From positions 576,001 to 640,000 of the forward strand of contig JBJBEO010000001.1 in assembly GCA_047284725.1 (NCBI GenBank): a DNA stretch of 64,000 nucleotides, given 5' to 3'. A program made the position numbers and the translations under genes. Positions 12,532 through 64,000 of the stretch are shown in pieces (the stretch's first letter is position 1; each line of letters opens with the position of its first letter). Below the pieces are notes generated by a model, which was given only the letters and a program-made list of their open reading frames with translations, was not told the origin of the DNA and did no database searches. This stretch comes from Synechococcus sp. (GTDB lineage: Bacteria > Cyanobacteriota > Cyanobacteriia > PCC-6307 > Cyanobiaceae).

Positions 12532-12729
12532 GTGATGGTGTGCAGCGATTGTGGTGGCAGCGGTATTCAGCGTGTCGCCGATCAGCGGTTCCGCACCTGT
12601 CAGCGGTGTTTGGGACAGGGCAGGATCCTGAGTGATCCGTTGGGCGAATCGAGGCAGCCTGTCGGTGCCGCTCGATCCGCCGAAGTCGTCGAAATCAACG
12701 CAGTTGCTTCTTCTTCTGCTGCCAGATAA
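12532..12729 (+). CDS. Small DnaJ-type zinc-finger protein
   Basis: Two CxxCxGxG repeats (CSDCGGSG, CQRCLGQG) in 65 aa. Confidence 0.65.
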   Translation: MMVCSDCGGSGIQRVADQRFRTCQRCLGQGRILSDPLGESRQPVGAARSAEVVEINAVASSSAAR

Positions 12730-12811
12730 AGAAGACGACGGTGGTCACCACCGCCAACAGGGGCACGGCGGTGAACAACAGAAGGGCAACGGCAGTCCAG
12801 TCGGTGTACAT
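12695..12811 (-). CDS. 38-aa single-TM micropeptide (not in ORF track)
   Basis: MYTDWTAVALLLFTAVPLLAVVTTVVFFIWQQKKKQLR*; ATG start, one hydrophobic helix, basic tail, host-like codons. Confidence 0.6.
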   Translation of the reverse strand: MYTDWTAVALLLFTAVPLLAVVTTVVFFIWQQKKKQLR

Positions 12812-13018
12812 CCGCAGAGAAAGAAAACCCGCATATCCTCTCAGGAGAGCGTTGCTGAACGACTTCTACCGCTGCATTTGATCGAGATTGCAAGGTTGTG
12901 GGCGTCGAGCGCAGCGTTGATGCAGGCTCCTTTTTCTGCACCGTTTGGCATCACTGGCCCCGTCTTGGTGGCGCCATGTGCTTCGGCAGAGGAAAGTGGC
13001 TCAGGTTGCTTGTGATGG

Positions 13019-13342
13019 ATGCGTCTGGTGTCTCTGGGCGTTGGTGTTGGTGCCTCGCTGTGGATGGCAGGGCTGGGGGCCGTGGCCAGGGCCGATGCGT
13101 TTGCCGGTCTTGAACCCTGGGTGCGCGATTGCTTCACCACGCAAAGGTCCCGGGCCTGTGAGCAGGCATTGTTGCGAGCGGAGGCTCTGCAGCAACGGGC
13201 GGCTGAGCAGGATCGTTATCCCTGCCAAAGCATGGTCCTCGGACTTCAGGCCGACGTGGTGATGGTGCAGTTTCGTCAGGGCCGTGGGGCTCGAGCCTTC
13301 GAGACGTTGGCAGCGGTGCGGCAACGCTGCAGCGGCTTGTGA
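13019..13342 (+). CDS. Hypothetical secreted protein
   Basis: Signal-peptide-like N-terminus (...AVARA), four Cys, helical content. Confidence 0.65.
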   Translation: MRLVSLGVGVGASLWMAGLGAVARADAFAGLEPWVRDCFTTQRSRACEQALLRAEALQQRAAEQDRYPCQSMVLGLQADVVMVQFRQGRGARAFETLAAVRQRCSGL

Positions 13343-13425
13343 TCGCCTCTGCGATGACGGTGCTGACCAGCATCCCCTTGACGGTTCGTCTCCTTAGCGT
13401 GGTGGGGCCTGGTGATGGTCTGGGG

Positions 13426-13674
13426 ATGGGGGTGACACAGCAAGAGAAGGATGAGTGGCGAGATTGTCTGTTGCAGGAGGTGGTGAGCTTTCTGGCGGCT
13501 CGTAAACACGACATTCATGGCAACTACATGCGTGGCAGCGCAGGCCAGCTGCCGCTGGAGCAGTTGGAGGCGGAGGGACTGTTGGATGTGGAAGTGGCGA
13601 TCACCTTCCTCCAGGACAAGCGTCCTGGCTGGGGCCTGGGTAAGGGATTTTTGGGAATGAATCTGATTCAGTGA
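13426..13674 (+). CDS. Hypothetical protein
   Basis: MGVTQQEKDEWRDCLLQEVVSFL...LLDVEVAITFLQDK; coding-like composition. Confidence 0.6.
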   Translation: MGVTQQEKDEWRDCLLQEVVSFLAARKHDIHGNYMRGSAGQLPLEQLEAEGLLDVEVAITFLQDKRPGWGLGKGFLGMNLIQ

Positions 13675-13848
13675 GCCAGCGCACAGATCGCCGTTCGGCA
13701 GGGTTTGAGGAATGGATGGCTCGGCGGGCGCGTTGATCGGGTTTGCTTGGCAAGCATCAGTCTGATTCTCAGAAAGCTCGCTTTGGGTTTGTGAAGTGGC
13801 GATTCGCCAGCGAAGGCCCTCTATCTGCGAGCAGCCTTGAAATCCAGA

Positions 13849-13866
13849 TTTACAACCCGTTACAAA
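13849..13866 (+). promoter_or_regulatory. HLR1-like direct repeat (putative RpaB/SrrA binding site)
   Basis: TTTACAAC-CC-GTTACAAA matches (G/T)TTACA(T/A)(T/A)-N2-(G/T)TTACA(T/A)(T/A) with one mismatch; ends 32 nt upstream of the ATG at 13899. Confidence 0.6.
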
Positions 13867-13898
13867 GCTGTTAACATTGGTTCATATGCGTGCTTCTT

Positions 13899-14018
13899 AT
13901 GACTGATTACACGATCTGGATCTACGCCATGCTCGCCTTTGGGGGGCTGATCACTGCTGCTGTGCTGTTCACGCTCTCCAGGCCCAGTGACCTCCCTTAT
14001 CTCCAAAAGAAAGGCTGA
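13899..14018 (+). CDS. 39-aa single-TM micropeptide (not in ORF track)
   Basis: MTDYTIWIYAMLAFGGLITAAVLFTLSRPSDLPYLQKKG*; AT-rich upstream region, and a GCGTGCATC...GATGCATGC hairpin downstream. Confidence 0.65.
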   Translation: MTDYTIWIYAMLAFGGLITAAVLFTLSRPSDLPYLQKKG

Positions 14019-14099
14019 GTCCGTGCGTGCATCCTCGATTCATTGCCTTGTTGAAGAGATGCATGCCGTAGCGTCGTTTGTGGTGCTGCTACCGATGTC

Positions 14100-14264
14100 A
14101 TGATCGAGTGGTCTGAAGAGCAGGACTATCTGGAATGCTGGGCCATCGCAGGACGGCCATCCCACTCCAAGCATTCGAGGGAGTTTTGTTTTCGGGAAGC
14201 CGGAGTGGCTCGTTTCAATGACGTTGTTGACGATGAGTATGGCCAGCTAGAAGACGATGCTTGA
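14100..14264 (+). CDS. Possible 54-aa acidic hypothetical protein
   Basis: MIEWSEEQDYLECWAIAGRPSHSKHSREFCFREAGVARFNDVVDDEYGQLEDDA*; fills an otherwise empty gap. Confidence 0.4.
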   Translation: MIEWSEEQDYLECWAIAGRPSHSKHSREFCFREAGVARFNDVVDDEYGQLEDDA

Positions 14265-14329
14265 ACGCCTCTAGGCTGGTCATCTCCTCTACTACTGCTG
14301 CTAAAAAGGAAAGTTCTGAGATCGGATCA

Positions 14330-14590
14330 ATGCCGGCAAAATCCACAACACAACCGAATGCTCGGTGTTGGGTGTGGTTTAAAGGGGGGTTGAATGAGGA
14401 GTCCCACTGGCGCAGTGGTTGGTATGGAGCTCCTTCCGTGCTGGGAGGGATTCGAATTGAGCATAGTGATTATGTGCCCTGCCGTTGTCCGGAGTGGCGC
14501 GTGACATTTGAGGAGCCTGCCGACCCGAAGCAGGCGCCCGCTATCCCTGCAGGCGCTGAGTGGAAGTTGTTTCCTACCGAACCGTGCTGA
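14330..14590 (+). CDS. Hypothetical protein (Trp-rich)
   Basis: CWVWFKGG...HWRSGW...IEHSDYVPCRCPEWRVTFEEP; resembles small picocyanobacterial hypotheticals. Confidence 0.7.
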   Translation: MPAKSTTQPNARCWVWFKGGLNEESHWRSGWYGAPSVLGGIRIEHSDYVPCRCPEWRVTFEEPADPKQAPAIPAGAEWKLFPTEPC

Positions 14591-14605
14591 TGTTCTCAGG
14601 GGCGG

Positions 14606-14959
14606 TCAACGACGATGGCCTAGTACAAATCGTTTCACGACGCCTTTGCTTTTCTGATAGCGAATCAGTTCGTCTTCTTCCAAGGTGTTGAGGCTCAGAA
14701 TGCCATTCTCTCTGTACTCGCGCTCGAATGGAACGACCCAGGACGTTCCATCTTGCATGGCGTAAATCAACTCTGCTTCGTCTGTGCTGATGCAGAAGCG
14801 CACTTTCACATCATCAAAGACGCCCACATCGCTGATAAATTCCGCATGGCTGTAATGGCATGCCTGGGCTCGCTCAAACTCATCTTTGATGTTGGCGAAC
14901 GCTGGCATGACGCTGAGCGTCACTGAAGCGCCAAAGAGAGCCAGGCTGGCAATTCGCAT
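14606..14959 (-). CDS. Hypothetical secreted protein
   Basis: Sec signal MRIASLALFGASVTLSVMPAFA, then a beta-rich domain with two Cys. Confidence 0.7.
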   Translation of the reverse strand: MRIASLALFGASVTLSVMPAFANIKDEFERAQACHYSHAEFISDVGVFDDVKVRFCISTDEAELIYAMQDGTSWVVPFEREYRENGILSLNTLEEDELIRYQKSKGVVKRFVLGHRR

Positions 14960-15063
14960 GGAGTCTGGCCTTCAAGAGATTGAAAGGCTTTGTCATAGCA
15001 GTGATTGGCATCTGGTGCTGTGTCAGGTCAGGTCGTAGCGCCGCTTGCTCAAAGAGGTTGGTC

Positions 15064-15399
15064 ATGAGAGGCATTCGGAATGATCCGAAAGATGCCAGGG
15101 ATCAGGTTCAGGCTGCAGATTTTGCAGCTTTGTTGACGCTCTCTTTGCTTGCTTGGTGTCTGGCAGGGTTGTGCATTGTCTCTGCTTCGGTGGACTTTCT
15201 TTTCGTTGAAGCCTTCATGTTTCCAATGACAATTTTAGCGTTGGTTGCGTTGATCGTTGATGCATGTCTGCGTCGCCTGGACTTGGACAATCCCTCATCT
15301 CAAACAATTGCGAGCGCTCCATGCATTGTGAGAGCGCTGAGGTCTCTGTGCGCTTCAAGGCGAAAGTGGTGGCACCTTGACTGTGTTTCAGAATGGTGA
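15064..15399 (+). CDS. Hypothetical membrane protein
   Basis: Two hydrophobic segments; convergent with the next ORF across a hairpin. Confidence 0.4.
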   Translation: MRGIRNDPKDARDQVQAADFAALLTLSLLAWCLAGLCIVSASVDFLFVEAFMFPMTILALVALIVDACLRRLDLDNPSSQTIASAPCIVRALRSLCASRRKWWHLDCVSEW

Positions 15400-15436
15400 A
15401 TCTCCAAGCGAATCCGGCGGCTGGTTTGCAGGTTGC

Positions 15437-15460
15437 CATGTTCCGTATGAACGGAACATG
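15437..15460. terminator. Perfect 10-bp hairpin between convergent ORFs (possible bidirectional terminator)
   Basis: CATGTTCCGT-ATGA-ACGGAACATG. Confidence 0.5.
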
Positions 15461-15461
15461 C

Positions 15462-15650
15462 TCATCCGCCACTCAAGGATTTGGCGTTGCTCATCAAGAC
15501 AAATCCAACCACAGTTGAAAGGATGATCAAGATTGTGGCTGGCCATTCCAGATGCTTCCACCATCCCCGCATGCATGGAACATGCTCTGTGAGTCGATAG
15601 ACAACGATCAAAACCACAATCGTTCCTACAAAGAGTCCCCAGCCACTCAT
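15462..15650 (-). CDS. Small two-TM hypothetical protein
   Basis: MSGWGLFVGTIVVLIVVYRL...WPATILIILSTVVGFVLMS. Confidence 0.55.
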   Translation of the reverse strand: MSGWGLFVGTIVVLIVVYRLTEHVPCMRGWWKHLEWPATILIILSTVVGFVLMSNAKSLSGG

Positions 15651-16090
15651 GAAAACCTGACTGCACAGCTCCTTGTTGATGGCAGTTTCGCAGGCAGACG
15701 TTTGACGTTGAAGTGCCCCGCGTGTGCCAAGCCACTGCAGTTCAATCCCAATCAGTGAGAGGTGTATCTTCAATTGCTGGCCGTGGTCGCTTTGGCAATC
15801 GAAATCGACTGAGTGTGTGTGGAATGGTCGCCGTGGTTGAGCCTGTTGAATTCAGTCGGGTTCATGTCTGGTCACCGTGCAAGCCTCATCGTTTAAAGGT
15901 GGAATCCATTGGTGAATTCGCCTCGCTCTCGCCGGCGGTGTATTGAGGTGTTGGACGGCGGAGTCGACGTATAGCTGGCTGTTGATTTTGCGGAAACTTG
16001 GGATCAACAGAGTTCCTGAGACCGTTCTGCGGCAGGCGTTGTTGTTTTCAAGCTCTGAATTGACGTCCCAGGTGCCGTGGGAACTTAAAA

Positions 16091-16162
<72 letters not shown>

Positions 16163-16172
16163 ATGTGGAGGA

Positions 16173-16254
16173 TGGGCCGGGTTGGATTTGAACCAACGTA
16201 GGCAGAGCCAGCGGATTTACAGTCCGCCCCCATTAACCACTCGGGCACCGACCC
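16173..16254 (-). tRNA. tRNA-Tyr(GTA)
   Basis: Reverse complement GGGTCGGTGCCCGAGTGGTTAATGGGGGCGGACTGTAAATCCGC...GGTTCAAATCCAACCCGGCCCA with a long variable arm. Confidence 0.97.
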
Positions 16255-16360
16255 GAACCACACCGCAAGAATTTACCAGCTGGTCTGCCCCCTGGGTCGC
16301 GATCTTGGGAGATTGCCCGGTCTCGATACGATCTGATTCGTTCTCGCTTGCCTTGCGGCC

Positions 16361-16813
16361 ATGCGTTTGCTTCTGCTCAATGGTCCCAACCTCAATTTGT
16401 TGGGGCGTCGGGAGCCTGGGCTGTATGGCAGTGCGACGCTGTCTCAGATCGAATCGGCCATGGTGCAGCAGGCGCGCGCCTTGAACGTGGACATCGATTG
16501 CTTTCAGAGCAATTTCGAGGGGGCTTTGGTGGAGCGCGTCCACCAGGCCATCGGCCAGGTAGATGGGATTCTGATCAATGCCGGGGCTTACACCCACACC
16601 TCGATTGCTCTCCGGGATGCGTTGCTCGGCGTGGCGATTCCCTACGTGGAGCTTCATCTGAGCAACACCCATGCTCGGGAGTCGTTTCGGCATCACTCCT
16701 ATCTGGCGGATCGTGCCGTTGGTGTGATCTGCGGGTTTGGGGCCGATAGCTACCGCCTCGCGATGGATGCCCTTGTCCATCACCTCAGGGCCCTTGCCGA
16801 GGGGGATGTGTGA
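16361..16813 (+). CDS. aroQ: Type II 3-dehydroquinate dehydratase
   Basis: [40 protein letters not shown]. Confidence 0.97.
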
Positions 16814-17493
16814 TGGCGTCGTCTCCACTGACAACCTCTGTGGTTGCAACCGCTGCCCTGGCTCAACCTCTTGAAAAATCCGTGGCCAGCATTCGATGGT
16901 TGGCCGCTCCCACGAATGCAGCCTGGGTTGCCCAGGCCACGGCGCGGCCGATCGAAATCCTGATTGATCACGCCCATTGCGAGCGCAAAGCGGCTGGAGC
17001 TGCCGTTCAGTTGATGTTTCGCTATCTCTGCGAGCCGGGGTTAGGGGAGGCCCTCAGTCCTCTGGCGCGGGAGGAGCTCGAGCATTTCGAGCAGGTGCTT
17101 GCCGTGCTCAAGGGGCGCGGCCGCTATCTGGAGCCACTCCCCTCACCGGGGTATGGCGCTCAGCTGGCCAAACACGTGCGCAGGCCCGAGCCCGAGCGCA
17201 TGCTCGATTCTTTTCTTGTGGCTGGCTTGATTGAAGCCCGCAGCCATGAGCGCATGGCCTTGCTGGCTCAGCACAGTCCTGAGCCTGAGCTTCGAGCGCT
17301 GTACCAGGATCTTCTGGCCAGTGAGGCGCGTCACTTCGGTTTGTATTGGGTGCTGTGTGAAGAGCGCTATCCCCGCGAAGTGATCGTGTCTCGTTTGGAG
17401 GAGCTGGCTGCTCTGGAAGCCCAGATCCTCACCGGAGATCTCGATCATCCAGGCGACGTGCGTATGCACTCCGTGGGGGTGATGCGCACTTGA
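16810..17493 (+). CDS. miaE: tRNA-(ms2io6A37)-hydroxylase (di-iron)
   Basis: [31 protein letters not shown]. Confidence 0.93.
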
Positions 17494-17586
17494 TCCCGAT
17501 CGTGCCGTTTCAGTCGCGATTGGTGGCGTGTTGTGTGAGTGCTGTCTAGAGGTGAGGTCTCTCGATCGATCTCAAAGGTCAGCGCT

Positions 17587-18504
17587 ATGGGTTTGCGTAA
17601 GACGGCCACATGCGGATTGCTCTCTCTGTCAGCTCTGGCTTTAGTGGCGTGTCAAAAGCCTGCCGCCGAGGTGAAGGAAGGTCCGAGTGAGGTGGCCTCA
17701 TCCAGCGCCTTGGAAACAGGCAAGCTGCGGGCTGTGGTGATCGGTCAAGCGTTGCCGATGGTTGAAAAGACTGGCGACAGCTATGACGGCTTGACGTTTG
17801 TGGTGCTCGAGGCGATCCGGGATCAGCTGGCGCATTCTCCTCAGGCCAAGGCGGAGAGTTTCAGCATCGAACCTGTCGCCGTGAGTTCTGCCCGTGAGGG
17901 TCTCGACAAGATTCAGTCGGGCGAGGCTGATATCGCCTGTGGGGTTGCTTTCAGTTGGGAGCGGCAGCGGACGCTCAATTTCACAATTCCATTTGCCAAC
18001 GGCGGGGTGCGCTTGCTCGCTCCGAAGGGCAATGACGGCACCCCCGCCAGCTTGAAGGGAAAAACCATTGGTGTCGTGAAAAACAGTGTGGCTGCCGATG
18101 TGTTGGCGGGGGCTGTTGAAGACGCTCAGTTCCAATTTTTTGAGACGCCGGCGAGTGCGTTAGCGGCGCTCAAAGGTGGTGACGTGACGATCTTGGGCGG
18201 AGACAGTCTCTGGTTGAAGGCCAATCGAGCCGAGACTGCGCCTGATGATGATCTCGTTCCTGATCGGGCTTACTCCCGCTCCGGCGTTGGCTGCGTCGTC
18301 GGAGGGAGCACCCCCCATCTGCTCAATGTCAGCAATTTGGCGATCGGTCGCTTGCTCTCGGCCTATGTCGAGAACGACCCTGCCGTACGTACAGAGATCA
18401 ACCGTTGGATCGGTGATGGGAGTGCCATCGATCTGAGTGACAACCAGATCAGCAGATTTTTCCGAATGGTGTTGGCAACGACCGCTGAGCTGAGAAATCC
18501 GTAA
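17587..18504 (+). CDS. grrP: Orphan substrate-binding lipoprotein, GrrP-like (SBP family 3 fold)
   Basis: Lipobox LVAC; ADIACGVAFSWER...FTIPFANGGVRLL...LKGKTIGV; directly upstream of the Grr precursor and maturase. Confidence 0.8.
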   Translation: MGLRKTATCGLLSLSALALVACQKPAAEVKEGPSEVASSSALETGKLRAVVIGQALPMVEKTGDSYDGLTFVVLEAIRDQLAHSPQAKAESFSIEPVAVSSAREGLDKIQSGEADIACGVAFSWERQRTLNFTIPFANGGVRLLAPKGNDGTPASLKGKTIGVVKNSVAADVLAGAVEDAQFQFFETPASALAALKGGDVTILGGDSLWLKANRAETAPDDDLVPDRAYSRSGVGCVVGGSTPHLLNVSNLAIGRLLSAYVENDPAVRTEINRWIGDGSAIDLSDNQISRFFRMVLATTAELRNP

Positions 18505-48061: not shown

Positions 48062-49597
48062 ATGGCTCAGACACTCCATGCACTGCTCCACGCGGTTGAT
48101 CTGCCCGTGGTGGAAAGCCTCCCCAATCCTGCGATTGCAGCCCTCACCTGTGATTCCCGCTGCGTCGGTCCAGGGTCACTGTTTCTGGGCCTTCCCGGGG
48201 AACGCGTCGATGGAGGCAGTTTCTGGCGTCAGACCTTGAAAGATGGCGCAGCGGCGGCTGTGATCGGATCGGCCGCTGCAGCGGCCGATCCCCCCGGTCC
48301 CAACGATGCTGTGGTGGTGGTTCCAGATCCGGTGGCCCACTGGCTCGGTGCGTTGGCTGCTGCGTTCTGGCAACACCCTTCGCGGCGCATGACCTTGGTG
48401 GGTGTCACGGGCACCAACGGCAAAACCACCGTGACGCATCTGATCGAACATCTGTGTGAGCAGACCGGGCGGCCTTCCGCGCTGTTCGGCACCCTGGTGA
48501 ACCGCTGGCCAGGCCGCACGGTCACCTCCACCCACACCACGGCCTTTGCGGATCACCTGCAAGCGCAGTTGGCTGAAGCGGTGGCAGCCGGTACGCAGGT
48601 GGCGGCCATGGAAGTGAGTTCTCACGCCCTGGATCAGGGGCGTGTTGCCGGCTGTCAGTTTTCGGCCGCGGTGTTCACCAATCTCACCCAAGACCATCTC
48701 GACTATCACCCGTCGATGGAGGCCTACTTCGAGGCCAAAGCACGGCTCTTCCGTGATCCTCTTCTCCTGAGCAACGGCCCCTGTGCCGTGGTCAATGTCG
48801 ATGACCCCTGGGGGCAGCGTCTGGCGGATCAGTTGGGTGAACGCTGCTGGCGTTGTTCGCTGCAACCGGACCGGACGGACGGGGAGGTGGAGCTCACCAT
48901 GACAGACCTGCTCATGACTGCCTCCGGCGTGAGAGGCCAGATCGTGACTCCCGTTGGATCGGCTCCTTTTCAGTCTCCCCTGGTGGGTGACTTCAACCTG
49001 ATGAACCTGCTTGAGGCGGTGGGGGTGCTGGTGCAGTTGGGGATGCCGCTGCCCTTGTTGCTGGACGCTGCAGCCTGTTTCAAGGGCGTGCCAGGACGGA
49101 TGGAGCGGGTGATGCTGCCCACGGCGCCGTCTCAGGCTGCGTTGCCCTCGGTGCTGGTGGATTATGCCCATACCCCCGATGGCCTGCGCAATGCCCTCGC
49201 CGCATGCCGCCCTTTTGTGGATGGTTCCCTGGTGTGTGTGTTCGGTTGCGGTGGGGACCGTGATCGTGGCAAACGGCCTCAGATGGCTGCGGTGGCAGCT
49301 GAGTTGGCCGACCGGGTTGTGGTCACCTCGGATAATCCCCGCACAGAGGATCCCCAGCAGATCCTTGACGATGTGGTAGCGGGTCTGTCTCCTGATGCCT
49401 CCAAGGTGGTGGAGGCTGACCGCGCTCAAGCCATTGCCCTGGCGATTCGTGATGCTCAGCCAGACGACCTGGTCTTGATCGCTGGGAAAGGTCATGAGGA
49501 TTATCAGATCCTTGGCACCAGCAAAATTCACTTTGACGACCGAGAACAGGCTGAGCTGGCACTGCGCCAATCTCTGCGCGTCAATCAGCTGGGGTAG
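48062..49597 (+). CDS. murE: UDP-N-acetylmuramoyl-L-alanyl-D-glutamate--2,6-diaminopimelate ligase
   Basis: [45 protein letters not shown]. Confidence 0.96.
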
Positions 49598-50691
49598 TAG
49601 TAAAACGCTGCTCCAAAGATTGAGAATGTTCCCAGCAACAAGACCCCCTCCAGCCAGTTTGATTTGGCATCCATGCCGACCAGGTTCACAATGAGCACGC
49701 TGAACAACAGTGCCAGGATTTCGAAGCCCTCGAAATCAAGATTCATGGGCTGATCAAGGAATGTCGCTGTGATCACAAGGGCAGGAGCGATCAGCAAAGC
49801 GACCAACAGGCTGGATCCCATCGCCAACGAGATCGGAAGATCCATTTCATTGTTCAACGCTCCTTTCACAGCGGGTACATATTCAGAAAATCCGCCGATG
49901 ATTGGAATGATGATCACGCCTGTGAACAGTGCGCTGAATCCCATCTGATCGGTTGCTGGCTCAAGAAAATGGATAAAGGCCTCAGATTGGAAAGCAAGAC
50001 ATGCGGTGCTCAAGATGAGCTGCAGGATCCAGGGGGCAACGGCGGTTGGAGGGTTGTCGTCGTCTTCATCAACGTGTTGAGATGATGGGGGGTCGAAAAG
50101 ATGGCTGTGTGTGGCCAGTGAAAAAAGAAGCGTTAAAAAGTAGATGGCAATGAGGATGATTGCCACAGTCACGGATAAGCCATGAATGGCGTGCACGTCG
50201 TCAATCCCTGATGTGCTAATCAAGGAGGCGGGAAGGGCTAATGCAATCACCGCGAGGGTCATCGTGGCTCCATGGGTGCGCACCATGGTGGGCTGAAAAT
50301 TTTGCTCGCTAAATCGCAGGCCTCCTACAAGCATGGCCAGGCCTGTAATCAGTAGCAGGTCGGAGAGAATCGCTCCTGTAATACTGGCTTTCACGACATC
50401 GATAAGGCCTGCACGTAGGGCCGCCAGTGCGATCACGAATTCGGCACAGTTGCCAAATGTAGCGGTGCAAATGGCTCCAATCGTTGGACCACTCAGCCTC
50501 GCAATCTCTTCTGTCGCGTCACTCAACAGCAGGGCGATTGGAATAATGCCAAGACCCGCCAGAATGAAGCCAGCCTCAGTGTTCCAGTGTGCATTGACGG
50601 CCAGTTGTGTCAGGGCAAGCATGGTGATGGCGGGGATCATTTTCCACCGTCCGTGCCTGAAGAAGGCCAGAGAATGCGTTAAGGCTCCCAT
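49585..50691 (-). CDS. Ca2+/H+ exchanger (CAX/ChaA family)
   Basis: [32 protein letters not shown], acidic loop DEDDD, AMGSS, SNWLEG; about 11 TM helices. Confidence 0.9.
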
Positions 50692-51803
50692 CGCTGTGCT
50701 CCAAAAAATGTCAATTCGACATAGTCGCTGGCTTGGTTGTCGGAGTCAGTGAGATCAAACGTCATGCCATCGGCATTGAGTACTTTGATCGTTTTCAGGG
50801 CCTTCAACAATGTCTCTCGCGTGGGGTTTGGGCCTGCGCGCTCAAGGGCCTCAGTCATCAACTTGGCTGCAATGAACCCCTCGAGACTGGTAAAGCTGAA
50901 GCTTGCGTCTGTATTGGTGGATCGCATTAATTGCTGGTATTCAGCAACAACTGGGATCCAACGGTCCCATGGAAAGGGAACGACCTGGCTGACGCCGATG
51001 CCATTGGCCTGCCCTGCAGGTAGCGAGTCTTCGAGAGCCCTGCTGCCTACGAAGGATACATTCATGATCTGAATATCAAGATTATTCCTGAGAATTGTCT
51101 TGCTTAAAGCCGCTGAGCTGACGTACGCAGAAACGATAATTAAGCCATTGGGTCTGACCTCGTCGATGATACTGAATGCCTTGGCGATGTTGTCAGAGTT
51201 CCTTTGCACAGTGGCAATGCCGGCCGGTGTGAGGTTATGCTTTTTTAAAGCTTTTTTGGCCGCCGAGAGTCCGTCTTGTCCGAAGGCATCATCTTGATAA
51301 ACAATGGCAATTTTTTGTCGCGCGTCACGGACCAGGCTGTCAACGATCTTGTCAATTTCCATGCTGTAACTTGCGCGGAAATTGAACACCATCTTCAAGT
51401 CGGAATCCCTGAGCAGGCTTGCTCCACTCAGGGGGGCAATCAATGGGATCCGCTCGCTCTCAACGATGGGCAGAATGACTTTGGTTGTTGGTGTCCCGAC
51501 ATACCCAAACAAAGCGAGTAGGTCAGTGTTCTGAAGGAATGTCTTGGTGTTCTGGATGGTTCGTTGGGGTTCGTATTGGTCATCCAGGCTGGTGAGCCTG
51601 ATACGGCGCTGATGAATCCCCCCGCGACGATTCACTTCGTTGAACCAGGCAAGAGCGCCTGCTTGGTATTCGCGTCCTAACTGTCCTGACGGACCCGTTA
51701 ACGGAAGTGACTGACCGATGACGACCTGGTTGTCTGATGTTGGTGAATAGGCGCGTCTGCTTTTTTCTGCCGTTGCTTGCGTTGTCGCTAACATTAAACC
51801 CAT
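50679..51803 (-). CDS. Periplasmic ligand-binding protein, type I/LivJ-like (Venus flytrap) fold
   Basis: IGQSLPLTG, NEVNRRGGIHQRRIRL..LDDQYEP, GYVGTP, FRASY, YQDDAFG, EGFIAA. True start at or slightly upstream of 51803. Confidence 0.88.
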   Translation of the reverse strand: MGLMLATTQATAEKSRRAYSPTSDNQVVIGQSLPLTGPSGQLGREYQAGALAWFNEVNRRGGIHQRRIRLTSLDDQYEPQRTIQNTKTFLQNTDLLALFGYVGTPTTKVILPIVESERIPLIAPLSGASLLRDSDLKMVFNFRASYSMEIDKIVDSLVRDARQKIAIVYQDDAFGQDGLSAAKKALKKHNLTPAGIATVQRNSDNIAKAFSIIDEVRPNGLIIVSAYVSSAALSKTILRNNLDIQIMNVSFVGSRALEDSLPAGQANGIGVSQVVPFPWDRWIPVVAEYQQLMRSTNTDASFSFTSLEGFIAAKLMTEALERAGPNPTRETLLKALKTIKVLNADGMTFDLTDSDNQASDYVELTFFGAQRWEP

Positions 51804-51885
51804 CACAAGCAGCGCTTGGATGACGTTTAGCCGTGTGACTGTCTCTTGATTTGATGATGAACACTGCCTTCCCTTTGGGCCGGAA

Positions 51886-53121
51886 ATGACACGCAAACGC
51901 CGTCGCAGATGGAACATTCTCGCTTTGGTGTCGATCCTGATGGCGGTGATGCTTTCGATCATTGCCCTCAGCAATCTTAATGTTGAAGCGGTTAAAGGGC
52001 GTGATTCCTTGCGTCTTTCTTCCGGTTCTCGTGCTCTCACCACTGATCCCAGGCGTCTGCCTCCCGATGGATGGTCGTCTCTGCGCGGGACCCGTCTGGT
52101 GGGCCCAGAGTTAGAGGCCGATATCAAATCCCTGAATGAAGCTCAATATCGAGTCAGGGTTGGAATCTATGCAAACAGTACCTATGACTTGGATTTAAGC
52201 GTACCAAGTTTTTCGTCGAATGGATACATTTGGCTGCGATGGCAGCAACCCCTCCAGGATTACCTAGATGAGCAGGAGTTGTCGCTGAGTGATCGGATTG
52301 GCCTTGTCAATGTCTTGCTGTCTGACGCGGAGCCCGAATTGATCCCGGTGCAGGAAGAGCCCGTCAAGCTCGAGGATGGAGATTATTATCAGCTGTATAA
52401 ATATGTTGGTCGCTTTTACGTCGATAAGGCGAGCTTCGTGCGTTTTCCCTTCCTTACGGTGAGTCTCCCAATTGCAGTGGAGGCTGTGGATGTTGATGGG
52501 TCGTTTGATTACTCCCGTTTTCGTTTTGAAGCCGATGTTCAGAACAGTGGGATGGGCCTGTATGCAGGAACTGGCATCATTGGATGGCGCAGTCGTGGTT
52601 GGTCAATCGCTGAGTACCGCCATAATTATTCGACCAATTTTGGCCTTGGTGGTGATGAGGATGATTACAGCACTGTGATTTTTGATATCACATTTGGCAC
52701 CTCTTCATGGTCAGCCTTCTGGAGGCTGATTCTTCCTCTGATGGTGGTGATGACGATGGTTCTTCTGGTTTTCAAAGTGCGTCCGGACGAGCAGGATGCA
52801 CGCGCTGGGATTCCCGTCACGGTGTTGCTCACACTGGTCTTTCTTCAGCAGGTTTATCGCGATGAACTTCCCGATTTGCCGTATCTCACCTTTCTTGACA
52901 AGGTCTATGTGATTGCTTATGTCGTGACCTTGGTGGCTTTTGTGCTTTTGATCTGGATCGGTCGACGTTATTCCGACGTTGACAAGATCCCAGAAGGACC
53001 ATTGCGAGACCGTCTGGAAATGCGGCTACAGGTTCTTGATGAGGTCTGGCCTATGGCCATGGTGGTGTTTTGTGCAGTTGCCGTTGCCTTCTCGTGGCTT
53101 TCGATTCCCGCCAGTACTTGA
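51886..53121 (+). CDS. Prokaryotic pentameric ligand-gated ion channel (GLIC/ELIC-like)
   Basis: N-terminal signal or anchor; beta-rich ectodomain (VRVGIY...YIWLRW); Pro-loop RFPF; M1 RLILPL; M2 RAGIPVTVLLTL; M2-M3 loop LPDLPYLTFLD; C-terminal M4. Confidence 0.85.
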   Translation: MTRKRRRRWNILALVSILMAVMLSIIALSNLNVEAVKGRDSLRLSSGSRALTTDPRRLPPDGWSSLRGTRLVGPELEADIKSLNEAQYRVRVGIYANSTYDLDLSVPSFSSNGYIWLRWQQPLQDYLDEQELSLSDRIGLVNVLLSDAEPELIPVQEEPVKLEDGDYYQLYKYVGRFYVDKASFVRFPFLTVSLPIAVEAVDVDGSFDYSRFRFEADVQNSGMGLYAGTGIIGWRSRGWSIAEYRHNYSTNFGLGGDEDDYSTVIFDITFGTSSWSAFWRLILPLMVVMTMVLLVFKVRPDEQDARAGIPVTVLLTLVFLQQVYRDELPDLPYLTFLDKVYVIAYVVTLVAFVLLIWIGRRYSDVDKIPEGPLRDRLEMRLQVLDEVWPMAMVVFCAVAVAFSWLSIPAST

Positions 53122-53124
53122 CGT

Positions 53125-54372
53125 TCAGTCAAGATTGCTGATCCGATTGGTTAATGATCTGAGCTCTTCTTCGGTGGTGCTGATGTGCGTGCAGGCTCGC
53201 AGGCACTTGGGGGAAGCGAGGTCACGGATCCACAGGTTTTGCTCACCCAGTTGCTTTACTACGGCGGCCGGTGCGATTGGCTTCAGTGCTGGATGTAGTT
53301 GGAAGCTCACAAGACCGGCTGGGGGAGGTCCCTTCAGCAGGGGATTGACTCCAGGCAGCTCGGCAAGCTGATGCCAGAGCTTGTCGCTGAGGTCCTGAAT
53401 CGTTGCCAGGCGTTCGTCAGTGCTGCCCTCCTGTTCAAGCAGCTCCAGGGAGGTGCGAAGCCCAGCCAGCAGGGGGACACAACTGGTGGCCACCTCGAAA
53501 CGGCGGCTGTCGTGGTGGAAAGGATCGGGGTCGCCGAAGACGGCCCGGCTTTCGTCCTGCAGGCTGCGCCAGCCGATCAGGGTGGGGTTGGCTTCATTCA
53601 GCACCCGCTCAGACAGGGCCACACCCCCAAGTCCTTCCGGGCCGCAGCACCATTTGTGTCCGGTGAAGGCATAGATATCGGACGCAGCAGCAGCCTCGGC
53701 CACGGGGATCTGGCTCATGCTTTGCGCCGCATCCACCAGCAGATAGGGGTGGTTGGGATGATCTCTGAGTTGATCGGCAACGTCCGCAATCGGCATCAGC
53801 TGTCCTGTATTCCAGAGCAGGTGGGACAGCACCACGACCCGGGTGTTGGGGTGCAGATTCGCCTCGATGGCGGCAAGCACGGCTGCATCATTGCCGCTCT
53901 GCTGCTCGCGGCCGCCGAGAACCTGCTGAACAGGCAGGGTGTCGATGTCGAGATGCTGGCGACGGGCCAGTTCATGGCAGGCGGCCACCACGCCGGGATG
54001 CTCGCAGTCGCCAATCAACAGACGATCGCCCTGGTTGAGGGGCAGGCCCCACAGCGGCAACACGCAGCCACTGGTGACGTTTTCGCTGAGGGCCAGGCGA
54101 TGGGGGGCAACACCGCACAACCCTGCCAGCTGTGCTCTGGTGCTGTTCACTTCCCGGCTGATGTAGGGCCAGACGTCGGCGGTGAAGGGTCCCAGCTCCT
54201 GGATGCGATGCCAGCTGCTGGTGATGGCCTCAAGCGAAGGCGCCGGCAGTGGACCCTGCCCCCCATAGTTGAAGTAAGTCTTGTTCTGAAGGGCAGGGCA
54301 GAGAGACCTCAAGTGGCCTGCGCTGTTGTTGGTCGAGGCGTTCCTTGCGCCGTCCAGATTTGCCATGTCCAT
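53125..54372 (-). CDS. Aminotransferase class V PLP enzyme (cysteine desulfurase/C-S lyase-like)
   Basis: YFNYGGQGP, EHP, SHLLWNTG, VDAAQS, FTGHKWCCGPEG, LRACTH. Confidence 0.9.
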   Translation of the reverse strand: MDMANLDGARNASTNNSAGHLRSLCPALQNKTYFNYGGQGPLPAPSLEAITSSWHRIQELGPFTADVWPYISREVNSTRAQLAGLCGVAPHRLALSENVTSGCVLPLWGLPLNQGDRLLIGDCEHPGVVAACHELARRQHLDIDTLPVQQVLGGREQQSGNDAAVLAAIEANLHPNTRVVVLSHLLWNTGQLMPIADVADQLRDHPNHPYLLVDAAQSMSQIPVAEAAAASDIYAFTGHKWCCGPEGLGGVALSERVLNEANPTLIGWRSLQDESRAVFGDPDPFHHDSRRFEVATSCVPLLAGLRTSLELLEQEGSTDERLATIQDLSDKLWHQLAELPGVNPLLKGPPPAGLVSFQLHPALKPIAPAAVVKQLGEQNLWIRDLASPKCLRACTHISTTEEELRSLTNRISNLD

Positions 54373-54901
54373 GCCATGTCCATGCACCATCAGTCTTGCT
54401 GACGCCAAGCTGCTGTGTCATCCGCTGTGCATCCCATCGTTGCTTTGGCGGCGTGGAAGCACAGAGTGGATTGGGCCTCAATCAGACAAGGTGAGAGTTG
54501 CCTTGGTAAGGATCATACTGATCGGGCAATCGCGATGGCTCTTAGTCAGCTGACTTGATCTTTGAGTGTGCTGATCATGTGTGTAAGTCTGTCATTGTTT
54601 CTGTATACAGCAGTGCGACCTTTTCAAAGGAATGAGGGATCTTCTTCGAGGTCAAGCCAGGTGCGAGACAATTTGAGCACCAATTTATGTGGTTTTCGCG
54701 TTAAGACTCTGTGAGCGTTTTGGTGATGCGTCAGTTTCGCCAATAAGCGTAATTGCTGGCAATCTTTCCTCAATTTGTGCTTTCTAATTGGCGTCTCTTC
54801 GGATGAGTTAATCGCGTCCTCTTGCGTCTGCTTAGAAAATAAGCAATCTATCTAAGGCGTTTGGTGGGCTGCTTAAGGACAAGTTTTTGATTGTGCCAGG
54901 G

Positions 54902-56035
54902 TTAAGCAAGTTGAGCTGCATAATTTTGGATATCACTTCCTTCGAAGGCTATGAAATTTGAGTTTGTAGTGTCTAGTAGGGAGTCATTGACATCCCAGCC
55001 TAAGTCGTCAAGAACTCCTAATGTAACCATGCTTAAAGATTGAGTTTCGGCATTGTAGATATCTAAATAACCAATATGCAAATCATTGTGGAGGGGATTG
55101 TATTTGCCGTTGATGATTTCATCGCTCTCCCAATGGGCTCCTGCAGTTCCTGAGCCGCCTCCGTTTTCAAGGACTGGGTTGGTAATAACGTCTTCTCGAG
55201 TTGCAAACTCTGATTCAACCCATTCTTCAAAGATTGTATTAGCCTTGCTTCCGTTAAAATAAAATCTATCGTCGTTGTTTTTATCGATACTCTCGTCCCA
55301 ATTGTCGTCGCCTGGAAAGCCCAGTGAGTGAATAAGTTCGTGAGCAAGGAGGTGGGTAAATGATTTGTATTGATTGCTAATCATGGCGTCTGTGTAGCGA
55401 GGGTTCAGGATGATTGTTCCCTCATCGGCAAGACCGTTTGTATTATTATCACTACTTGGGTAAGAGCCTCCCAGTGTTCCACCGCCTAGCCATTTCTCGA
55501 AGCCAAGATCCAGCTTGAATGTTTCAATCTCTGCAGCGGGGCCAGGAAACTCATCAAACCAACTGCTGACAAAGTCCAATGCATTGTAGATTGATTCATA
55601 ATATGGATTATAATTAAAGTTACTTATTAATGTAACATCAAATTGGAGTTGACTTGTTCCGTAGCGAATGAGTTCATGACTTTCTTGATCTGTTGTGCCG
55701 AAATATGCTTCATAAGGATTTAGGGGATCTTCGTTCCCTCCACCGTTAGGCCCTTTGTCCTTCGGTTTATTTCCTCCTCTTGCTTTGTCGATACCGAAAT
55801 CAACAAAGTCCTGCCTGTCAACATCAATTGTTTCAGCTTCCTGTTGCTTAAGTTCGGCGGCAAAACTTTTTAGAGGAAGATCTAGATCACCATTAATATC
55901 AGGATCAAAATCGGCTTGGCTGCTTTCTTGCGTATGTTCCAAGTCGAATAATGAGCCAGTAATATATTTGCTACGATAATTAAGATTTTCGATGGAAAAA
56001 TTAGTTAACTTGTCAAGAATCGTTAAATTTTTCAT
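54902..56035 (-). CDS. Leishmanolysin-like (M8) zinc metallopeptidase
   Basis: AHELIHSLGF (HExxH), LENGGGSGTAGAHWE (third His ligand), LSMVTLGVLDDLGW; AT-rich. Confidence 0.78.
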   Translation of the reverse strand: MKNLTILDKLTNFSIENLNYRSKYITGSLFDLEHTQESSQADFDPDINGDLDLPLKSFAAELKQQEAETIDVDRQDFVDFGIDKARGGNKPKDKGPNGGGNEDPLNPYEAYFGTTDQESHELIRYGTSQLQFDVTLISNFNYNPYYESIYNALDFVSSWFDEFPGPAAEIETFKLDLGFEKWLGGGTLGGSYPSSDNNTNGLADEGTIILNPRYTDAMISNQYKSFTHLLAHELIHSLGFPGDDNWDESIDKNNDDRFYFNGSKANTIFEEWVESEFATREDVITNPVLENGGGSGTAGAHWESDEIINGKYNPLHNDLHIGYLDIYNAETQSLSMVTLGVLDDLGWDVNDSLLDTTNSNFIAFEGSDIQNYAAQLA

Positions 56036-61571: not shown

Positions 61572-62132
61572 TTAGGGGCACCAGGATTGAGCTGGCATTA
61601 CGAGATAGGCACTCTGGTTACTTCCGGTTAGAGACGAAGAACCGGCCGAATATTCTACTTTCAAGAGATTATTGTTTGTTGCTTCGGTGATAAGAGTCCG
61701 ACTAAGTGTGACATTTGGATCAGTAATCGTGGGATCGTTGGCCAAGATATCGTCATTGATTCGCCGTGAGTCATTTGTGGTAGTAGTCAGAGCTCCATAC
61801 TGGGCCTGAGGAAATTGTTCATTGTCCTGCAGAAGAGAAAGTGCGATAGAGCTATCCGAACACATAGTGTCCGAAGGCTCGTAATTAAGTTCACCAGCGA
61901 TAGTAATGTCATCATCATTAATTGTGGTTTCGTCAATTTGCCATAAGTGCGTGATTCTTCTGATTTCCGCAAGGTCTGAAGAAATAGCTCCTGATATCTG
62001 ATCGCGCAGTTTCGAACTATTTACCACATTCATGGAGGATGTGAACGATTGGAGAGAGACCGTGGTAAAAATCGTCAGCGACAAGATGGCGACAGCAGCT
62101 TCAGTAAGATTCATGGCAATCGAACTCTCCAC
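61572..62132 (-). CDS. Minor type IV pilin/pseudopilin-like protein
   Basis: A|MNLTE followed by a hydrophobic helix (Glu at +5), then a beta-rich domain with two Cys; clustered with other prepilins. Confidence 0.6.
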   Translation of the reverse strand: MESSIAMNLTEAAVAILSLTIFTTVSLQSFTSSMNVVNSSKLRDQISGAISSDLAEIRRITHLWQIDETTINDDDITIAGELNYEPSDTMCSDSSIALSLLQDNEQFPQAQYGALTTTTNDSRRINDDILANDPTITDPNVTLSRTLITEATNNNLLKVEYSAGSSSLTGSNQSAYLVMPAQSWCP

Positions 62133-62275
62133 ATGTCTTCATGGTATCACCTATACGGGTTTTGGCACGTACACGATGATTGATCAATTGTTTTGCTAGA
62201 AGTGTGTATGCCAAATCTATCAACATGGAATAAAATCGCTGATCTATGAGCTTATTGTGGCCTGCAAAGATTCGT

Positions 62276-63589
62276 TCACTGAGAAGAAACCGGAATGTCT
62301 TTGCGCTGATCCCTGAAAATTAATATTTCTACGCCGGTAAGAGATAACGTTTTAGGGCTTGCAGGTACGGTGTTATCAGTGACAGTGCAGGAAGTGCGAT
62401 CACATGATTGACTTAACACATAATTGGCTGTACCTCCATTTGCAAAATTCTCAGTAAAATAAACAACATCAAGGTTATCCCCGCCGTCGATTTGAAAATT
62501 TCCACGCCCTGGAACGTACTGATTGTATCCATTGCCGCCATCAAGTATTTCGATTTCAGTTGTTGATTGGCTATTGTTCCCGTTGCCAATGAGAATATCA
62601 TTGCCATCTACTATTGCGTCATTTGTTGGGCAGTCATCAGAGAATTGATCTCCATAAATAGTATCGATGGTTTCGGTTCCTTCAATAACATCACTCCCAT
62701 TGCAACCAATTAAAGATGTTGATGATGTTCCACCCGCTTCAATTAAATCGTCGAAACTACTTCCAGTAATGCTAGTGACTTTCCCAACACCACAGATCAA
62801 GATATCTCTCCCATCTGTCACACTGGTTATTCCTCTATCTTCTGCATTGAATGTGGTGTCGCCTTCGTTTGGGGTAAATTTTGGCAAACTACCGCCAGCA
62901 AAATCGCAAAGACCAAGTGCGTTTGGCTCAGTGTAGAGCGGATTATTGCGTGTGTTAGCTGAAAAGGTGTCGGAATAACGAAGAGGAACTTTGTTCTCGC
63001 CTCGATCTTGCTCCATGGAGAGAGTGAACGTTATCAGTCGACCTGTTGTTTCGGTGGGATCGGTGGATACTGAAAATCCATCGCTGCTTAATCCATCGAT
63101 TAAACGTTGCGGCAATGGTGCTGTAGCAGTTTCATCAATCACCGATAAGTATTGGCCGCGTTCATCAAAGCTCGGTCCACATCTCCATAATGATTTTTCA
63201 CCGAACCATCCCGAAACAGAACTCCCTTGACTATCTAATGATGAACTTGCTAAGGCATAGATTGAAGGATAAAAGTCAGCTCGAATGTCTAGCGCAAAGA
63301 GGAAGGAAACACCAGCTGTGTTGAAAAGTGCTGTGCAAGTGGATGGTATATCGATCTTAGACGGATCAGTGATGATCGCTTCAGACAAGCTGACTTCAGA
63401 TTCAATAAACTTCGTGGTTCGATCCCAATTTTTTCGCTGACGCTGATAAGCTTCGCTCCGTTCATTGACTCCAAGCTGGCTGACAAAAAAGTTAAAAGCT
63501 ACAATCGTAATAAATGATGTGATGAACAGAGTTACAAGTAACTCAACAAGAGTAAAACCTTGCTTTAAAAAGCGTTTGTGTAGTTGCAT
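62276..63589 (-). CDS. Prepilin-type (PilW-like) protein with C-terminal RTX-like Ca2+-binding repeats
   Basis: KQG|FTLVELLVTL class III signal; C-terminal LIGCNGSDVIEG, GNDILIG, LDGGNG, IDGGDNLD. Confidence 0.82.
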   Translation of the reverse strand: MQLHKRFLKQGFTLVELLVTLFITSFITIVAFNFFVSQLGVNERSEAYQRQRKNWDRTTKFIESEVSLSEAIITDPSKIDIPSTCTALFNTAGVSFLFALDIRADFYPSIYALASSSLDSQGSSVSGWFGEKSLWRCGPSFDERGQYLSVIDETATAPLPQRLIDGLSSDGFSVSTDPTETTGRLITFTLSMEQDRGENKVPLRYSDTFSANTRNNPLYTEPNALGLCDFAGGSLPKFTPNEGDTTFNAEDRGITSVTDGRDILICGVGKVTSITGSSFDDLIEAGGTSSTSLIGCNGSDVIEGTETIDTIYGDQFSDDCPTNDAIVDGNDILIGNGNNSQSTTEIEILDGGNGYNQYVPGRGNFQIDGGDNLDVVYFTENFANGGTANYVLSQSCDRTSCTVTDNTVPASPKTLSLTGVEILIFRDQRKDIPVSSQ

Positions 63590-64000
63590 GATCCTCCAAT
63601 GTAAAGTCCTTCTCGAAATAAACCGAGGGGAGCTAAAATGTTGATACAACGTGTTTGAGTGTTGCCGTTTCTAAGAGGCTCACTTTCGAATAAAATCTCA
63701 CCTCCGCAAGGAACTGAACCAGTCGGCGGGAAAATAAGATACAAGTTATCATTATCGCTTAGGCAAACCGGATTTAAGCCTGCTGGATATTCAAAGCGTT
63801 CAATGCTGGCATTAAATCGATGAGGTGCGATCCCACTGCAGTATTCGTTGGATGTAATGTAGGTGAATCCTGTGTAAGATTTAGCAATATCGTTGTCACC
63901 AGCACTAGCCGCTTTTTCTATTTTAATCGCACAGATTTTATTTTGCTCGAGAGCTTTTGTTTGAATGGATTGAAGCCAGCTTGCATCTTCATTCACATCT
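63565..64000 (-). CDS. 3' part of a pilin-like (FimT/GspH-type) protein; 5' end beyond the window
   Basis: Frame is open to the window edge; WLQSIQTKAL..C..I helix, FPPTG, RCINILAPLG; overlaps the next prepilin start. Confidence 0.55.
   Translation of the reverse strand, partial: DVNEDASWLQSIQTKALEQNKICAIKIEKAASAGDNDIAKSYTGFTYITSNEYCSGIAPHRFNASIERFEYPAGLNPVCLSDNDNLYLIFPPTGSVPCGGEILFESEPLRNGNTQTRCINILAPLGLFREGLYIGGSCNYTNAF

Follow-up and report, generated by a model that had tools for sequence, protein, structure and literature searches.

A probable two-gene periplasmic sensor in picocyanobacteria, pairing an orphan binding protein with a divergent pentameric ligand-gated ion channel

Bacterial ligand-gated ion channels of the pentameric type (pLGICs) were discovered by Tasneem, Iyer, Jakobsson and Aravind in 2005 (PMC549065), who listed a Synechococcus member among them. 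The parts of that paper considered here describe Magnetospirillum and Bradyrhizobium pLGICs to which a type-I periplasmic binding protein (PBP-I) domain is fused, predicted pLGIC operons that include a PBP-II or Cache gene standing alone, and a Microbulbifer operon that combines a pLGIC gene with one for a Na+/H+ transporter, and they propose, as a bioinformatic prediction, that such binding modules pre-concentrate or sense ligands. Cooperation between a pLGIC and a periplasmic binding protein has already been predicted in print; the same parts of the paper assign a simple animal-like architecture to the cyanobacterial channels and name no partner for them. Jaiteh et al. 2016 (PMC4795631) likewise list a Synechococcus pLGIC and rank the Pro-loop proline, which sits at the beta6-beta7 loop tip, above all other positions in conservation. 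According to Fan et al. 2025 (PMC12664993), knowledge of N-terminal domains in bacterial pLGICs is scant; Zimmermann and Dutzler 2011 (PMC3119659) guessed a ligand of ELIC from an operon neighbour, and Ford et al. 2021 (PMC8786288) report orphan urtA genes in Synechococcus, the channel going unmentioned in the part of their text considered here. Here we describe a 64,000-nucleotide stretch of Synechococcus sp. (GenBank assembly GCA_047284725.1, contig JBJBEO010000001.1, positions 576,001 to 640,000 of the forward strand), hereafter the window, in which the gene for a pLGIC is divergent from the gene for an orphan periplasmic binding protein. The two genes probably constitute a conserved two-gene periplasmic sensor, with the gene for a CAX Ca2+/H+ exchanger as a local neighbour. 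Literature searches turned up no publication on this pair.

The neighbourhood of the channel gene was compared in one genome per species; the best 80 of 279 matching stretches were kept, corresponding to 77 distinct loci from close picocyanobacterial relatives (55–81% identity), and neighbouring genes were counted by tblastn with the window proteins. A binding-protein gene lies divergently upstream of the channel gene in 70 of the 77 loci, that is, in 70 of the 73 for which there is upstream DNA, a linkage far stronger than chance would give. Four of the seven misses (L006, L017, L028 and L048) have no upstream DNA, and the remaining three (L036, L041 and L056) have upstream DNA with no binding-protein gene. 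The gap between the two genes is 300 nucleotides (nt) or less in 68 of the 70 loci and 1442 nt in L047 and L077. Moreover, the pair is found in at least four unrelated genomic frames. The first, with murE and CAX on one side and a class-V aminotransferase gene on the other, is that of the window, L001, L005, L009 and L016; the aminotransferase gene lies downstream of the pair in 5 loci, and L003 is cut on the CAX side. The second frame has a small membrane open reading frame (ORF) behind the binding-protein gene, seen in 34 of the 60 loci with at least 500 nt there. This frame includes an ABC1 kinase gene behind the channel, present in 25 of 59 loci, and six marine loci (L008, L010, L013, L015, L019 and L043) also carry a histidine kinase and a response regulator. 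The third frame has DUF1825 behind the binding protein (9 loci) and the fourth has Nif11 genes (L002). The conserved unit is two genes, binding protein and channel, and not three. The original prediction had joined these genes and CAX in a self-contained three-gene circuit whose members would stay linked across genomes; the linkage stood for the binding protein and the channel and failed for CAX, which lies beside the pair in 4 of the 44 loci reaching at least 1.2 kb beyond the binding-protein gene (L001, L005, L009 and L016), and the circuit is not conserved.

CAX is a lineage-specific neighbour outside the conserved unit. The four CAX-bearing loci all belong to the clade of the window and share its murE/aminotransferase frame, and in the window CAX is co-directional with the binding-protein gene. 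The window protein matches TIGR00378 with 319.8 bits (cutoff 211.15) over residues 27–364 and contains two Na_Ca_ex stretches at 8.5e-33. A three-part calcium circuit, with sensing by the binding protein, a Ca2+ pulse through the channel and a reset by CAX, and with all three evolving and working as one module, would fit the overlap of the CAX start with the binding-protein stop in the window and L001, which makes co-transcription likely, and the position of CAX within about 115 nt behind the binding protein in L005, L009 and L016. It would also fit the lowered third-position GC content (GC3) common to all three genes in the window, the acidic residues at both mouths of the pore (DEQD 301–304; D326 and E327) and the Ca2+ sensitivity known, in the sources considered here, for the bacterial pLGICs DeCLIC and ELIC. 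Nevertheless, CAX is confined to that single clade, and behind the binding protein stands the unrelated small membrane ORF in 34 of 60 loci or DUF1825 in 9. We therefore regard such a circuit as quite unlikely in general and, at best, as a local elaboration.

The small membrane ORF that stands directly behind the binding-protein gene in 34 of 60 loci is conserved and hydrophobic and has 139–166 residues, the C-terminus DFDNFDEFF or DFDNFDQFF and no Pfam family (L008:5370-5804 on the minus strand, with counterparts at L011:5272-5751, L015:5334-5753, L021:5233-5712, L043:4724-5158 and L071:5294-5794). It is missing from the window, where CAX stands in its place, and its ESM Atlas look-alikes are cyanobacterial hypothetical proteins only. 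It may be an additional component, or simply a core gene next to the site of insertion.

The product of 51886-53121 is a genuine but divergent pLGIC. A family profile built from 60 diverse relatives matches the GLIC/GABA-A chimera 5osa (1.6e-31), ELIC 2yks (4.5e-28) and GLIC 3eam (1.3e-23), and the matches to GLIC and ELIC span both domains (profile positions 55–375), while the single sequence reaches ELIC at an E value of 5.4e-5 only. The family comprises 1327 cluster representatives at E <= 1e-3. The AlphaFold2 model has a predicted local distance difference test score (pLDDT) of 91.0 and a predicted template modelling score (pTM) of 0.85, and its top Foldseek matches are all pLGICs, including GLIC 4ila with an E value of 2.5e-19 and a template modelling (TM) score of 0.79, target-normalised. 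The protein thus models as the pLGIC that the original prediction had taken it for. The family matches expected for the three proteins were obtained in part: Peripla_BP_6 and Na_Ca_ex were recovered, whereas the channel stays below the curated cutoffs of Neur_chan_memb (19.5 bits against 28.1) and of the NCBIfam model LGIC_1 (29.4 against 500) and has no Neur_chan_LBD match in Pfam. Because few of the 60 family members are matched by Pfam at E <= 0.01 (7/60 by Neur_chan_LBD and 4/60 by Neur_chan_memb), we attribute the sub-threshold scores to the limited sensitivity of these models, and the name "hypothetical protein" that the orthologues bear in their source records has the same cause.

The channel begins with a hydrophobic helix that follows an Arg/Lys run and in which W9 and N10 are invariant among 65 orthologues; from the model, this helix is a candidate signal anchor or uncleaved extra transmembrane helix. 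Next comes a periplasmic extension specific to the clade, with R39, D40, L42, R43, L44, R49, L51, W63, G68, L71, E75 and D79 invariant in the 65 paired orthologues. In the beta-sandwich that follows, P188 of the RFPF motif is invariant in alignments A1 (wide), A2 (closer) and A3 and lines up with the PF in ELIC and in the GLIC chimera, and the Cys pair is absent from the Pro-loop, as in other bacterial members. Conserved aromatic residues of this domain are W116, W119, Y167, Y168, W234, W239, Y244 and Y248. Helix M2 (residues 303–325) includes D304, R306, T312, L315, F319 and Q322; R306 is nearly invariant and L315 invariant among the 60 diverse relatives, R306 aligns with the Arg of the GABA-A "PAR" motif and of the ELIC "ER", and the DEQDAR stretch (301–306) is invariant in the orthologues. 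By prime numbering we take R306 to be the basic 0' residue and L315 the 9' leucine gate, so that the pore would presumably be lined by D(-2'), G/S(2'), T(6'), L(9'), F(13'), Q(16') and D(20'). An acidic residue at -2' together with alanine at -1' is a rule linked to cation selectivity. Here D304 at -2' (acidic, as in GLIC) and A305 at -1' suggest a cation-selective pore.

The middle gene encodes a type-I Venus-flytrap periplasmic binding protein with the LivJ fold. It matches Peripla_BP_6 with 166.5 bits (cutoff 31.7; 1.7e-48), and its nearest PDB sequences are 3lop (1.4e-49) and 4kv7 (7.5e-49). The AlphaFold2 model (pLDDT 82.2) is matched by Foldseek to 4kv7 (E 6.4e-30, TM 0.84/0.86) and 3lop (TM 0.81/0.86), followed by many LivJ-type proteins with varied ligands. 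A hydrophobic, signal-peptide-like stretch ending in ATA|EK precedes the fold, and a hydrophobic stretch stands at the same place in the orthologues. Just after the leader there is a lipobox-like Cys in L031, L039 and L040 (LSACG) and in L053 and L070 (SGC); judged by these motifs, some lineages may have a lipid-anchored binding protein and others, that of the window among them, a soluble one. Among 23 longer relatives (32–40% identity, E 5e-71 to 8e-33) there are fusions to adenylate cyclase, Ser/Thr kinase and GGDEF-type domains, from which we conclude that this subfamily serves as a sensor module.

The fold and the family of the binding protein are those of proteins that serve ATP-binding cassette (ABC) transporters, and orphan binding-protein genes have been reported in marine Synechococcus in the part of the literature considered here (PMC8786288). 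The protein might serve an ABC importer encoded at a distance, such as one for neutral amino acids or urea, its adjacency to the channel reflecting shared regulation or history only. Its scores nevertheless fall far below the curated cutoffs for LivJ-type proteins (43.2 against 477 bits) and UrtA (21.9 against 493 bits), and its matches assign it neither a ligand nor a transporter. Pfam detected no BPD_transp_2/HAAT permease and no matching ABC_tran ATPase among the 59 other ORFs of the window, and no HAAT permease or ATPase among 81 neighbouring ORFs in 15 related loci. The Peripla_BP_6 match, the structure matches and the window scan all agree with the original description of an orphan LivJ-type binding protein that has no ABC permease or ATPase nearby. 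As the pair moreover persists in at least four frames and was duplicated as a unit, we consider service to a distant importer improbable.

Two other binding-protein genes were noted. In a Cyanobium locus, a second Peripla_BP_6 gene (L055:9973-11304, minus strand; 2.4e-51) lies about 1.7 kb downstream of the channel, with the ABC1 kinase gene in between. In the window, a 321-residue ORF at 17539-18504 (plus strand) has a weak Pfam match to the type-II family SBP_bac_3 (1.6e-6) and, in the Pfam scan, no transporter genes beside it; its product may be a second orphan binding protein.

The two genes of the pair share much of their history. FastTree trees of 65 channels and their 65 partners have 43 of 62 splits in common, compared to a mean of 0.24 and a maximum of 2 when the labels are shuffled; of the strongly supported splits, 24 of 29 in the channel tree recur in the partner tree and 27 of 29 in the partner tree recur in the channel tree. 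Two genomes contain two diverged pairs each (L052 with L072, and L051 with L074), and in both trees each genome has one member in each of the same two clades, with support of 100. Since the paralogous pairs split alike in both trees, the pair was duplicated or moved as a unit. Within a genome the paralogues are 49% identical in the extension, 58% in the binding protein, 65% in the sandwich domain and 75% in the pore domain.

Loss of the partner seems to leave a mark on the channel. Four partnerless channels, from L036, L041, L056 and L017 (the last without upstream DNA, its lack of a partner being deduced from its likeness to L036 and L056), were compared at the 152 positions whose conservation among the 65 paired channels is 95% or more. 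Of these positions, 12 of the 15 within residues 31–85 have changed in the four, compared to 11 of the 137 elsewhere (Fisher p 2.4e-9). Because only two independent lineages are represented, this signal is suggestive and not proof; it would single out the extension (residues 39–83) as the likely point of contact or coupling. A simpler role for the binding protein, along the lines that Tasneem et al. propose in the part of their paper considered here (PMC549065), would be that of a buffer, which only concentrates the ligand while free ligand binds the orthosteric site of the channel with no specific docking. The channel has indeed kept a full beta-sandwich with conserved aromatic residues. Buffering, however, leaves unexplained why the extension is invariant only where the partner gene is present, and also why extension and partner diverge jointly, and further than the pore, in the paralogous pairs; we hold it to be unlikely.

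Taken together, these data make functional coupling of the binding protein and the channel likely, and we regard the chances for and against direct docking of the one on the other as evenly balanced. In the sensor that we propose, binding protein and channel would be transcribed divergently from one short control region. The binding protein, presumably exported and either free in the periplasm or lipid-anchored in some relatives, would capture a small solute, and the loaded protein would then act on the periplasmic domain of the channel, most likely through the N-terminal extension (39–83). The pentameric pore would open and pass cations, turning an external chemical cue into a flux of ions or a shift in membrane potential. 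In the clade of the window, the CAX added behind the binding-protein gene may clear incoming Ca2+. The most specific version of this scheme, to which we give only tentative credence, would make the loaded binding protein a protein agonist that docks on the channel extension and opens a cation pore, possibly permeable to Ca2+; the channel would be the first such pLGIC and would provide fast picocyanobacterial chemosensing, with the co-transcribed CAX ending the signal in one clade.

Several observations weigh against a dedicated sensor, in addition to the deduced loss in L017 and the small number of independent lineages. An importer encoded elsewhere in the genome could still use the binding protein, and the titles of the nearest structures, 4kv7 and 3lop, name no ligand, which leaves its own ligand unassigned. 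Part of the agreement between the trees would be expected of any two neighbouring genes that are inherited vertically. The partnerless channels persist in L036, L041 and L056, so a channel can be kept alone; in L041 the common frame is retained, with the small membrane ORF 172 nt from the channel. pLGIC domains were found in 0 of the 23 longer binding-protein relatives, and the channel family profile retrieved no longer fused form among longer proteins, both blanks being weak evidence. Finally, the neighbourhoods of the distant channel family lie outside the 77 loci sampled.

The coordinates of the locus are listed in the table below. As originally described, the three low-GC genes are packed tightly between their neighbours, and their overlaps and less host-like codon usage agree with the ORF positions, GC and GC3 that we obtained. 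The murE and CAX genes share 13 nt at their 3' ends (49585-49597), the stops of the channel and aminotransferase genes are 3 nt apart, and, provided that CAX starts at the ATG at 50691, the end of the binding-protein gene runs 13 nt into it. Candidate starts of the binding-protein gene are GTG 51806, TTG 51896 and ATG 51917. The first leaves 79 nt between the binding-protein and channel genes, in line with the at most about 80 nt given earlier, and the other two, one of which is needed for the full-length signal-peptide-like stretch, produce opposite-strand overlaps with the channel start of 11 and 32 nt; the spacing depends on which codon is used. The longest ORF for the binding protein, with a start at 52127, is an artefact of an open antisense frame across the channel start. 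The sequence GTA-N8-TAC, which we take to be the NtcA consensus, is found in 1 of 69 shared control regions, giving no sign of nitrogen control.

Table 1. Genes of the locus and domains of the channel, in window coordinates.
Feature	Position	Strand	Remarks
murE	48062-49597	+	Left flank of the low-GC trio
CAX Ca2+/H+ exchanger, 368 residues	49585-50691	-	TIGR00378 at 2.2e-95, above cutoff; two Na_Ca_ex repeats
Orphan type-I periplasmic binding protein (Peripla_BP_6)	50679..51896, start uncertain	-	Pfam and PDB matches, AlphaFold2/Foldseek
Divergent control region between binding protein and channel	51807..51885	no strand	May partly encode the binding-protein signal peptide
pLGIC subunit, 411 residues	51886-53121	+	Profile, AlphaFold2 model, Foldseek
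Channel: N-terminal hydrophobic helix, residues 3-30	51892..51975	+	In AlphaFold2 model, after Arg/Lys run; sequence MTRKRRRRWNILALVSILMAVML
Channel: clade-specific periplasmic N-terminal extension, residues 39-83	52000..52134	+	Strand 41-51 and helix 73-85 in the model
Channel: extracellular beta-sandwich ligand-binding domain, residues 86-273	52141..52704	+	Model strands 88-272; Pro-loop motif FPF (P188)
Channel: four-helix pore domain M1-M4, residues 274-405	52705..53100	+	Model helices 274-297, 303-325, 336-366, 372-405
Class-V aminotransferase	53125-54408	-	Right flank of the low-GC trio

The GC content is 0.49–0.55 across 49500-53249 and 0.61–0.66 on either side, and GC3 is 0.60 for CAX, 0.57 for the binding protein and 0.53 for the channel, compared to 0.68 for murE and 0.72 for the aminotransferase gene. 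With GC of about 0.51, some 0.12 below the roughly 0.63 of the flanks, and tight or overlapping junctions to both flanking genes, the trio could be taken for a recently acquired foreign island whose arrangement has no functional meaning. Across the loci, however, the GC content of the pair tracks that of the host over a range of 0.43–0.70 and is lower than in the flanks at 56 of 69 loci, the median difference being only 0.03. The larger dip in the window is poor evidence of recent foreign origin. The channel tree, moreover, places the window among other marine Synechococcus. A tblastn search with the channel gave 0 matches in 50,697 phage and 72,556 plasmid records, which also counts against an island, and two distant channel relatives (P0139 and P0160) had no match in the plasmid records. 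We therefore consider a foreign island very improbable.

All 77 channels nest among the picocyanobacteria in the tree, whatever the title of their record. Several of the records L013, L017, L024, L025, L034 and L063 are titled as metagenome-assembled genomes of Salipiger, Bifidobacterium, Bradyrhizobium, Bordetella or Chitinophaga; their channels fall inside picocyanobacterial clades and their gene contexts are picocyanobacterial. These records are likely mislabelled bins or contaminating contigs.

Elsewhere in the window, a 377-residue ORF at 54902-56035 (minus strand) lies in a second, stronger low-GC patch (GC 0.41, GC3 0.37). It contains an HExxH motif (HELIHSLG) and has no Pfam or NCBIfam match; its ESM Atlas look-alikes are leishmanolysin (Peptidase_M8) clusters (0.95), its sole PDB sequence match is ADAMTS-5 (E 0.47), and it probably forms an island of its own and encodes a secreted zinc metalloprotease. 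Two ORFs with low GC3 (0.44 and 0.35) occupy 61572-63649 on the minus strand, the one of 457 residues with a prepilin N_methyl motif (7.7e-6), and may represent a pilin-like island. Nine short ORFs of 103–210 residues, mostly with lowered GC3 (0.51–0.71), stand in a row at 12632-16849; none has a Pfam match at 1e-5, and as mechanical calls they may not all be genes.

Although structural work on animal neurotransmitter receptors relies mainly on GLIC and ELIC as models, the natural ligands and roles of bacterial pLGICs are largely unknown. Where a pLGIC has a dedicated soluble binding protein as partner, that protein gives practical access to the channel's ligand, and with such a pair the physiological role of a bacterial channel can be tested directly. 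The pair is kept in both marine Synechococcus and freshwater Cyanobium, major primary producers, and may reveal how dissolved compounds are sensed without the classical chemotaxis apparatus. Contact gating of the channel by the binding protein, if it occurs, would be a new activation mode for the superfamily and would parallel, with split genes, the binding-protein domains that glutamate receptors carry in fused form. If the loaded binding protein is itself the agonist, the pair would amount to a neurotransmitter-receptor-like chemosensory pathway for a dissolved organic or nitrogen compound.

The window channel resembles GLIC, ELIC, sTeLIC and DeCLIC in combining a beta-sandwich periplasmic domain with helices M1-M4 (TM 0.76–0.80, target-normalised), in keeping the Pro-loop proline, the 0' Arg and the 9' Leu, and in having a short M3-M4 loop. 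It differs from them in being only 16–18% identical, in its extra N-terminal hydrophobic helix and conserved 45-residue extension, and in the dedicated binding-protein gene next to it; the sources considered here report no such partner for the solved channels. Tar with maltose-binding protein, LuxQ with LuxP and TorS with TorT are receptors that read their ligand through a separate periplasmic binding protein. The logic proposed here is alike, in that a loaded soluble Venus-flytrap protein docks on the periplasmic domain of a receptor; unlike the window channel, those receptors have a kinase or a methyl-accepting transducer as output and not an ion pore, and we claim no homology. CAX Ca2+/H+ antiporters are known from cyanobacteria. 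The window protein is like the cyanobacterial CAX proteins of TIGR00378, with a full-length match above the curated cutoff and two Na_Ca_ex repeats; only the position of its gene behind the binding protein, in one clade, is unusual, the protein itself being ordinary.

The closest precedents are the fusions and operons in the parts of Tasneem et al. considered here (PMC549065), where, as in our locus, a periplasmic binding module is predicted to cooperate with a bacterial pLGIC. In contrast to those cases, the type-I module is here a separate protein, and its gene is transcribed divergently from that of the channel rather than in an operon with it. Finally, ionotropic glutamate receptors, including the cyanobacterial GluR0, offer the same principle that we propose, a binding-protein fold that gates a cation pore, as far as the sources considered here describe them (PMC549065, PMC12664993). 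Their module is of type II and is fused to a tetrameric pore like that of K+ channels, whereas the module in the window is of type I, is encoded separately and is paired with a predicted pentameric Pro-loop pore.

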